Assembly: GCA_047459655.1 (NCBI GenBank)
Contig: JAJREF010000001.1
Span: 192,001 to 256,000 of the forward strand
Direction of reading: 5' to 3'
DNA from: Rhabdochlamydiaceae bacterium
GTDB lineage: Bacteria; Chlamydiota; Chlamydiia; Chlamydiales; Rhabdochlamydiaceae
DNA length: 64,000 nt
Shown here: in pieces, positions 15,167-16,296 of the stretch
How positions within the stretch are numbered: the first letter of the stretch is position 1
Layout of the letters: every line of letters starts with the position of its first letter
Notes under the pieces: model-generated
Seen by the model: the letters and a program-made list of their open reading frames with translations, nothing else
What the model was told of the DNA's origin: nothing
Database searches by the model: none
Program-made: the position numbers and the translations under genes

Positions 15167-16296
15167 CGTAAGTAGATATTTTTTTTGCGCTTCAGAAGGC
15201 AGTATTTACGATGTAACGCGGCGGGGTATTTGGCATGATATGCCTTTGAACCATGGGCTTGATCCAATTTCTTCTTCTACCGTGGTAATTCTTAAAGATG
15301 ATGGAAGAGAAGCAAGTGCAACGGATGTAAAATTGTCTAAATATGTTCGAGTTATATCTAACCCTTCTGCTTATTTAGAGAGTTGGGAAGGGAACCGACT
15401 TAATGTGTTTTTAGTAGAAATTAATCCTAGGATTATAAACAGACCAGACATTTTAAAAATTCAAAGAATTAGAGATAAGAGAATTGAATTTCTAAAAAAT
15501 ATTATGGTCGATTTAAGCGAAGTTCTACGTATTGTTGTTAGCTCCAAGAATGTTGAAAAAAAATTACGCGAGGTTATTAAGGAAGATCTGTGTAAAATTT
15601 CGATTGTTGTTGAGCCTCAGTTATTTGGTTTAGACATTCAAACTTCTTCACATCTTGATAAGGGGGTTGTAATTTCTCAATCTATTGCTCAGCCTGCTGG
15701 ACCAGTCCCTACTTCCGAAAAACTTGATCTTATAAAAGTCTGTAAAGGAGATCTATTACTATCTCCTATGCAGACCCATGTTAATACCGTGAACTGTGTA
15801 GGCATAATGGGAAAAGGCATTGCTTTATCCTTTAAGAAAAGATATCCAGAAATGTTTAAAGATTACGCGAGTAAATGCAAAAAGAAAAGAGGTGAAATTA
15901 GGAAAGCCTTACCCTTATGCTCTAGGAAATGGAAGGACCATCTTGAACTTTCCAACAAAAGGCCATTGGAAAGAAAACTCTAAAATAGAGGATGTTAAGT
16001 CAGGGCTTCAGTATTTAGTTGCACATATTAAAGAATGGAATATCCGATCAATTGCGCTGCCTCCTTTAGGTTGCGGGAATGGGAATTTAAGTTGGGATGA
16101 TGTCTTTCCGATAATGCGTGAATATCTTGCTCCGTTGAATATCCCTGTAGAAATTTATGCTCCCCATGATGCCTATTCTTTTGGACAGCCCCTTCAGGCT
16201 ATTCCGCCAAGACCTCGAAAAAGAAAAAGTGAAGACCAGGGGGCTGGACCATTATCTAAATATTTCAAGGCTGAAGTGAAAGAATGGACGCACTAA
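15159..16296 (+). CDS. darG: Fusion of a degenerate DarT-like domain and a DarG-type macrodomain, with NLS-like tail (one frameshift at ~15880 A-run)
   Basis: GDLL..HVNTVNCVGIMGKGIAL.FK..YP, ILNFPTKGHW and SIALPPLGCGNG.L.W are DarG/TARG1-type macro motifs; 8-nt ATGAATAG overlap with darT. Confidence 0.85.

Follow-up and report, generated by a model that had tools for sequence, protein, structure and literature searches.

The window analyzed here, a stretch of 64,000 nucleotides from a Rhabdochlamydiaceae genome (Chlamydiota; 1.6 Mb, 81.6% complete; hereafter G000), encodes a DarT-like ADP-ribosyltransferase followed by a DarG-like ADP-ribose eraser. The gene for the latter is present as two ORFs in the assembly, while its homologs, which are 40-65% identical, are unbroken. 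When rebuilt as a single gene and read across the frameshift with an X, it codes for 378 residues, and its start overlaps the stop of darT by 8 bases (15159-15166). The following features are considered below:

13214-13609, minus strand: gene for a SycD/LcrH-like chaperone (99.8 bits, under the cut-off of 104.8)
14279-15166, plus strand: darT, coding for a predicted ssDNA ADP-ribosyltransferase (PF14487, E 5e-31; PADLOC DarT; the model fits DarT structures)
14975-15163, plus strand: acidic, low-confidence tail of DarT (net charge -11) with a conserved PESSD(D/E)E motif
15159-16296, plus strand: rebuilt darG, coding for a pseudo-DarT domain, a macrodomain and a tail
15174-15626, plus strand: pseudo-DarT domain with the DarT fold (hhalign 95.8% and 97.9%)
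15732-16164, plus strand: DarG/TARG1-class macrodomain with K267 and W270, the equivalents of K80 and W83 (phmmer to 5m3i, E 2.6e-36)
15876-15890, plus strand: frameshift splitting the macrodomain gene, missing from a near-identical contig of sequencing run X1 and from one diverged piece of X2
16165-16296, plus strand: 43-residue basic tail, predicted to be disordered, found where DarG has its C-terminal domain (pLDDT of about 50 or less in the tail of homolog P0002)
16207-16230, plus strand: NLS-like basic cluster PRPRKRKS (KRK is kept in P0002, P0004, P0005 and P0012)
16243-16269, plus strand: PIP-like segment AGPLSKYFK with the core L-x-x-Y-F (LSKYF at 16252-16266)

The darT gene upstream of the eraser gene appears to code for a catalytically complete enzyme: its R67, Y94, M101 and E184 are the equivalents of R51, Y71, M78 and E160, the catalytic residues of DarT (PMC9967889), and each of them is invariant across 14 aligned DarTs. 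The H119 position is occupied by an Asn, as in Thermosipho africanus. The N-terminus bears a 25-residue extension rich in S, A and P; such extensions measure 13-25 residues in seven clade members, as against 5-11 in nine canonical DarTs. The PESSD(D/E)E motif of the acidic tail is conserved behind the DarT fold in members of two phyla (P0123-P0128, P0165, P0188 and, in a Dot/Icm carrier, L090 7651-7983), and might serve as a site for host CK2, as a secretion E-block or as the partner of the basic tail. A more distant DarT-like domain was seen at the C-terminus of a large protein in another genome (L252 1429-3165, G385 C5; a 644-codon open frame), where it is divergent and the neighbors of its gene are a transposase fragment and a small gene that may confer immunity.

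The rebuilt DarG opens with a domain whose fold is that of DarT, as illustrated by the model of the homolog P0002, the N-domain of which matches the Thermus DarT 7omv with a Z of 11.6 (rmsd 3.4, 148 aligned). Here the equivalents of N35, H88, Y94, M101 and N133 have been lost, R67 is not conserved and about 45 loop residues are gone. Across 20 clade-A N-domains, Asn at N35 and Tyr at Y94 were each found in 1/20, His at H88 in 0/20 and Arg at R67 in 4/20, with a Glu at the E184 position in 15/20 and M101 unaligned; the profile alignment of the clade-B N-domains to DarT is unreliable. Given that most of the active-site residues and about 45 loop residues are lost, we read this domain as inactive, and it is most likely the remnant of a duplicated DarT-macrodomain fusion that now serves as a DNA- or DarT-binding module. 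The macrodomain that follows was recovered by the PADLOC DarG profile (E 2.6e-40), and in the P0002 model it yields a Z of 26.2 (rmsd 1.2). Its K267 and W270 are invariant in 21/21 and 59/59 aligned homologs, and the protein probably works like canonical DarG catalytically, as a putative DNA ADP-ribose hydrolase. Only 43 residues remain after the macrodomain, and the NF048014 profile is matched at positions 1-153 of 338 (211.9 bits, under the cut-off of 250). Canonical DarG sequesters DarT through its C-terminal domain (PMC7003065); since this domain is absent, the rebuilt protein is not a canonical DarG. Two further origins for the gene were rejected: a viral one, as the N-terminal domain is uncovered in all of the best 80 viral loci, and a plasmid one, as no plasmid record spans 80% of the query.

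This architecture can be set against three known systems: The DarTG2 pairs of Thermus aquaticus, EPEC and M. tuberculosis (PF14487 and PF01661; NF048013 and NF048014) likewise have a macrodomain gene that follows darT and overlaps it, with the DarT catalytic residues and the DarG K80 and W83 equivalents kept as they are here. Unlike in those pairs, here the DarT-sequestering C-domain is missing, a pseudo-DarT domain has been added at the N-terminus and a basic motif-bearing tail at the C-terminus of the eraser, DarT is extended further at its N-terminus and ends in an acidic tail, and both proteins fall under the NCBIfam equivalog cut-offs (76.8 for DarT against NF048013, with a cut-off of 150). 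The Thermosipho africanus DarT-macrodomain fusion (7omu), the best Foldseek match of the homolog model, has the same domain order; in the present protein, by contrast, most active-site residues of the fused DarT are gone, an intact darT is encoded separately upstream, and the C-terminus forms a basic tail. Finally, human TARG1 (C6orf130) shares the macrodomain class and the catalytic lysine of the eraser, and is known to remove thymidine-linked ADP-ribose and to shield replication forks from DarT (PMC8501950). The host enzyme differs in having about 150 residues, with 23% identity to the macrodomain of the homolog model, and neither a pseudo-DarT domain nor a partner toxin.

The frameshift within the macrodomain gene is likely an assembly error, because a near-identical X1 contig lacks it and contigs of the same run differ from the window by other indels. 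Within window positions 8000-24000, these near-identical short-read contigs show single-base indels at seven other places (10557, 17108, 18529, 21110, 22870, 23021 and 23562), the split genes for the Mla ATPase and hemL among them, and many of the split genes of the window (those for the Mla ATPase, the TamA/TamB region, hemL, sucA and leuS) are probably assembly errors. On the strength of the X1 and X2 short-read contigs we rejected a reading of the macrodomain gene as a pseudogene. As X1 may be the source sample, it does not amount to independent biology. For the tail, the near-identical X1 short-read contig agrees with 16226-16450 without a difference or a gap; it begins only 13 bases before a G-run, with the A-run at 16224-16228 lying on the contig junction, a site left unbridged by 31 bases. 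At this junction the annotated frame is supported by P0002, the closest homolog among the matches listed, with which the tail is in register (KRKS.DQ, then K at +11 and +14). On these two grounds we mostly rejected an indel artefact as the origin of LSKYF, and we take the tail to be confirmed as real and in frame, with a small doubt coming from the alternative frame after the G-run, which likewise resembles P0002 but in two residues only.

The tail itself, PPRPRKRKSEDQGAGPLSKYFKAE, is encoded at 16204-16275 straight after the Macro domain, with the ORF ending at 16296; the translation thus agrees with the preliminary description of this DNA, which had also likened PRKRK to a monopartite NLS and LSKYF to the hydrophobic core of a PIP box with an offset Gln; that description made no mention of the frameshift in the macrodomain gene or of the upstream darT. 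The patterns used here for the NLS, PIP and beta-clamp motifs are those that we take to be their usual forms. By these, the monopartite core and the extended NLS patterns are matched and the strict K-[KR]-x-[KR] pattern is not. The likeness to an NLS is supported by the KRK in the nearest relatives and by the family-wide enrichment over shuffles and canonical DarG detailed below. As for LSKYF, the core pattern is indeed matched and the offset was correctly noted (position 1 of the PIP box is an Ala instead of a Gln, and the Gln lies five rather than three residues before the Leu), but the segment is non-canonical, unmatched by the Q-type PIP pattern, located on a terminal branch of the tree and missing from the four nearest relatives. 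The two lysines of AGPLSKYFK may also form the second half of a bipartite NLS. Shuffling this single tail 20,000 times produced the monopartite-NLS core in 2.6% of cases and the PIP core in another count of 1.7%; by itself, then, the sequence stands out only modestly. Among the ORF ends of the source genome, from which the rebuilt darG ORF was excluded, the NLS core was found in 22/1210, the PIP core in 73/1210 (6%) and both together in 0/1210; in low-hydrophobicity ORF ends the PIP core was seen in 1/124. The QL-x-LF-type beta-clamp motif was found in 0/58 family tails, this copy included.

In the phylogenetic tree the present copy falls in a 20-member clade (support 100/100) with members named Chlamydiales and Rhabdochlamydia, and in a five-member group (98/95) with P0002, P0004, P0005 and P0006 (P0016 was merged with P0015 in dereplication); a macrodomain-only tree is largely unresolved, with four canonical chlamydial DarGs misplaced on a long branch. 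KRK is found at the same place in three of the four nearest relatives and is replaced by PAKRPK in the fourth, and several have a second basic cluster about 10 residues on. The PIP core occurs in none of these four and in 3/20 members of the clade, in one of them at the extreme C-terminus. Conservation in orthologs, which had been suggested as a check on the tail, hence gives a divided answer: the NLS-like feature, common to the nearest relatives, is conserved, whereas LSKYF is lineage-specific.

To place these motifs in the context of the family, we gathered 70 two-domain proteins from the best 120 of 5758 and the best 150 of 15,285 matches along with their cluster members, dropped one truncated protein and dereplicated at 70% to 58 homologs, scoring the motifs in the first 60 residues of each tail. 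The related sequences included mean that the following counts overstate independence. The strict K-[KR]-x-[KR] pattern is seen in 36/58 tails against a shuffle mean of 11.2 (reached by 0/2000 shuffles), and compares with 4/51 canonical DarGs, 39/648 ORF ends of the source genome, and 4/78, 2/67 and 6/75 DarG-like macrodomain ORFs sampled from genomes, metagenomes and viruses, respectively; it is missing from 22/58 tails, including the one under study. The monopartite core is present in 18/58 tails (shuffles 2.7) and a basic cluster by a looser pattern in 46/58. The PIP core marks 13/58 tails (shuffles 0.9), against 2/51 canonical DarGs and 0/78, 0/67 and 4/75 of the same three DarG-like ORF samples, and a full Q-type PIP box marks 4/58 (shuffles 0.0). 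Furthermore, an I, L, M or V stands exactly three residues before the aromatic pair in 14/18 cases (background 13%), as against at most 2/18 at the other tested offsets, with a Gln at PIP position 1 in 4/18; in canonical DarG there is no such -3 hydrophobic peak (9/41). Mapped on the tree, PIP presence entails at least 8 changes, compared to a mean of 11.9 for shuffled labels, which points to both inheritance and repeated gain or loss. We conclude that PIP boxes, as predicted motifs, are a real feature of this eraser family. More generally, according to the ELM paper, a hydrophobic core that includes a double aromatic pair is common to PIP-like motifs, and these are able to engage more than one hub protein.

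Several other members display variations on these tails. A subset (P0032, P0064, P0158, P0019 and P0256) has R-R/K-V/M-T-D-F-F-type segments, which presumably resemble the Cdt1/p21 PIP-degron core. Full DarT-macrodomain fusions lacking the C-domain carry NLS- and PIP-like motifs in their linkers (P0168, P0175 and G166), with L-x-(K/R)-aromatic-F segments in the linkers of P0175, P0177 and G166. A single-contig chlamydial genome retains what is left of a macrodomain C-terminus, with two basic clusters behind it (L272 1495-1710, G223).

Taken together, these features lead us to propose, with a probability of roughly 0.58 and on the basis of sequence comparisons, that the tail would take a secreted eraser into the host nucleus, where it would remove DarT-type ADP-ribose from host DNA. 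Under this proposal the darT-eraser pair would be an anti-phage toxin-antitoxin system turned into a host-directed module: both DarT and the eraser would leave the bacterium; DarT would mark single-stranded DNA inside the host cell; importin-alpha would import the eraser through its NLS-like tail; and in the nucleus the eraser would keep host replication forks clear of the ADP-ribose mark, with the PIP box, where present, docking it on PCNA. That LSKYF in particular, as a lineage-specific candidate, binds PCNA is a tentative idea to which we give somewhat less than even odds. In TARG1-deficient human cells the damage inflicted by DarT occurs at PCNA-marked replication sites, and the same authors raise as an open possibility that DarT might be a secreted effector, while leaving open its action inside eukaryotic cells (PMC8501950). 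An NLS and an optional PIP box would thus suit an eraser to precisely those sites, and a DarG-class eraser encoded beside darT fits replication forks better than the generic ADP-ribose eraser that the preliminary description had placed there.

A scan of the phylum gave matches in 19/401 genomes: nine have canonical DarTG with the C-domain, four a fusion type (one of them partial), three the pseudo-DarT type (this one included) and three fragments or other macrodomains. The darT and eraser genes are adjacent in the window and in G385 and divergent in G181; in a gammaproteobacterium with IcmK (L090) the 3' part of a clade-type darT lies directly upstream of the eraser gene, and two further pairs are suggested solely by contigs of equal length. 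This retention of the pair could also be accounted for by an ordinary intrabacterial toxin-antitoxin variant, in which the lost C-domain is replaced by the basic tail as a binder of the acidic DarT tail or of DNA, and the eukaryotic-looking motifs are incidental. Any maker of an active DarT needs an eraser in its own cell, and the net charges of the clade DarT tails (-2 to -18) and the clade A eraser tails (0 to +9) are such that the former would be a simpler partner for the latter. Moreover, the gene pair was not found in two genomes of the same genus (87% and 97% complete), a patchiness reminiscent of a mobile defence module. We consider this account unlikely, though with an appreciable residual weight: charge pairing predicts neither the Q-x-x-hydrophobic-x-x-F-F boxes nor a hydrophobic residue at a specific position, the NLS-type clustering is three times that in composition-preserving shuffles, and the nine canonical DarTG loci of the same phylum keep their C-domain and have no such tail.

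Other architectures raise the question of what the eraser acts on. In seven proteins (P0020, P0023, P0024, P0030, P0031, P0038 and P0042), a GNAT acetyltransferase domain follows an NLS-PIP-NLS linker in one chain with the eraser, and there are unplaced stand-alone DarG-class macrodomains with NLS-like and some PIP-like tails (P0167, P0169, P0219, P0231, P0242, P0246, P0256 and P0258). It could accordingly be asked if the NLS is real but directs the eraser against host- or virus-made ADP-ribosylation of the PARP type, on proteins or DNA ends, with DarT staying in the bacterium. The GNAT-bearing and stand-alone forms would be at home in such a scenario, as would the recovery of only a partial darT in L090 and the presence of a convincing NLS in 0/7 clade DarTs; TARG1-class macrodomains are also able to reverse marks on DNA ends (PMC8501950). 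We nevertheless hold it to be improbable, as the partner darT keeps all its catalytic residues and is adjacent across two phyla, and P0165 joins DarT, the macrodomain and the basic aromatic-pair tail in a single chain.

A variant of the proposed nuclear role for the eraser involves giant viruses: intracellular symbionts of protists would deliver a DarT devoid of an NLS to the host cytoplasm, where it would ADP-ribosylate the DNA that co-infecting giant viruses replicate in their factories; the host forks would be guarded by the eraser, directed there by its NLS and, in some lineages, by a PIP box. We regard this version as quite doubtful. Chlamydial suppression of giant-virus factories has been described (PMC9457554) and, if true, the variant would offer a molecular mechanism for the chlamydial protection of amoebae against giant viruses, and this would be the first bacterial effector family to dock on PCNA by mimicking a PIP box.

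The nucleus-targeted eraser would have parallels among secreted enzymes of intracellular bacteria that act in the host nucleus, namely the chlamydial and Legionella nucleomodulins NUE, SinC and RomA, and in the Legionella macrodomain metaeffector MavL, which erases the ADP-ribosylation made by a partner effector; in these cases the targets are histones, the nuclear envelope or ubiquitin. Similarly, an antitoxin-like eraser of ADP-ribose has been redeployed away from the system it came from in the orphan anti-DarT erasers of phages (AdfN), but these have a NADAR fold, are phage-encoded and protect phage DNA in bacteria. In the available portion of a nucleomodulin review (PMC7819608), PCNA, ADP-ribos and macrodomain do not occur, and neither the present architecture nor a PIP-bearing DarG is described in the titles and abstracts searched, which take in few subscription journals, or in the available portions of PMC9503650 and PMC7819608, though supplements, especially that of PMC9503650, could hold it. 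DarTG itself is known from bacteria, where it controls growth and acts against phages. The present analysis names as candidates a DarG lineage that lacks the toxin-binding domain and has motifs resembling those for nuclear import and PCNA binding, in bacteria with type III or Dot/Icm systems. If this is confirmed, protist cells would be the scene of a contest over DNA ADP-ribosylation, host enzymes of the TARG1 kind would gain a natural opponent and PIP-box mimicry would enter the effector toolkit.

Regarding the host setting, the sequencing run that best matches the source genome is labelled as lake water, no RNA dataset was among the matches listed, and the host of the bacterium is inferred to be a protist. 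The source genome falls in Chlamydiota, since a phylum search built around a named chlamydial genome gave the same 15 loci as the corresponding search with the window. The placed carriers, few in number, are Chlamydiota with an SctV-type export gate and the one gammaproteobacterium with IcmK (Dot/Icm); most family members lie on unplaced metagenome contigs, and so a restriction to intracellular bacteria rests on few carriers. The wider genome scan gave at least one full family member and the metagenome scan none among the matches listed; with only those matches covered, the taxonomic range is poorly sampled. The source genome encodes a type III export gate (PF00771, E 2e-220; SctV-type). In the homolog P0002 model the fold of the eraser begins at residue 7, so that with only about six residues N-terminal to it there is little room for a type III signal in the eraser. 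Tails with a positive charge at the C-terminus are among the known type IV secretion signals, and the basic tail might be such a signal rather than one for host targeting, as would suit the one carrier with Dot/Icm. This we judge very improbable: no VirD4-family match was found in G000 (81.6% complete) or G385, and the same motifs are also seen within chains, both in linkers and ahead of GNAT domains.

Divergent from darT across a gap of 130 bases, four genes on the minus strand (window 11876-14148) resemble a type III translocon operon and encode the chaperone, a CopB-like hydrophobic protein and two uncharacterized proteins; these neighbors are not retained in L009. In the Dot/Icm gammaproteobacterium, a gene for a eukaryote-like protein kinase (L090 5841-7568) lies beside the darT fragment and the eraser gene. 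Scans of the window for promoters, terminators and repeats gave nothing above chance level, Chlam_OMP6 had no match anywhere, as was also the case for its controls, and the Atlas feature hits were all below 0.9. Elsewhere in the window, a fragmented autotransporter-like gene (31309-35636, minus strand) is broken by a transposase-like ORF (33574-34143), and a low-GC block at 50660-58656 has three large ORFs of 971, 825 and 404 residues without NCBIfam names, the last of them kinase-like, that are possible effectors.
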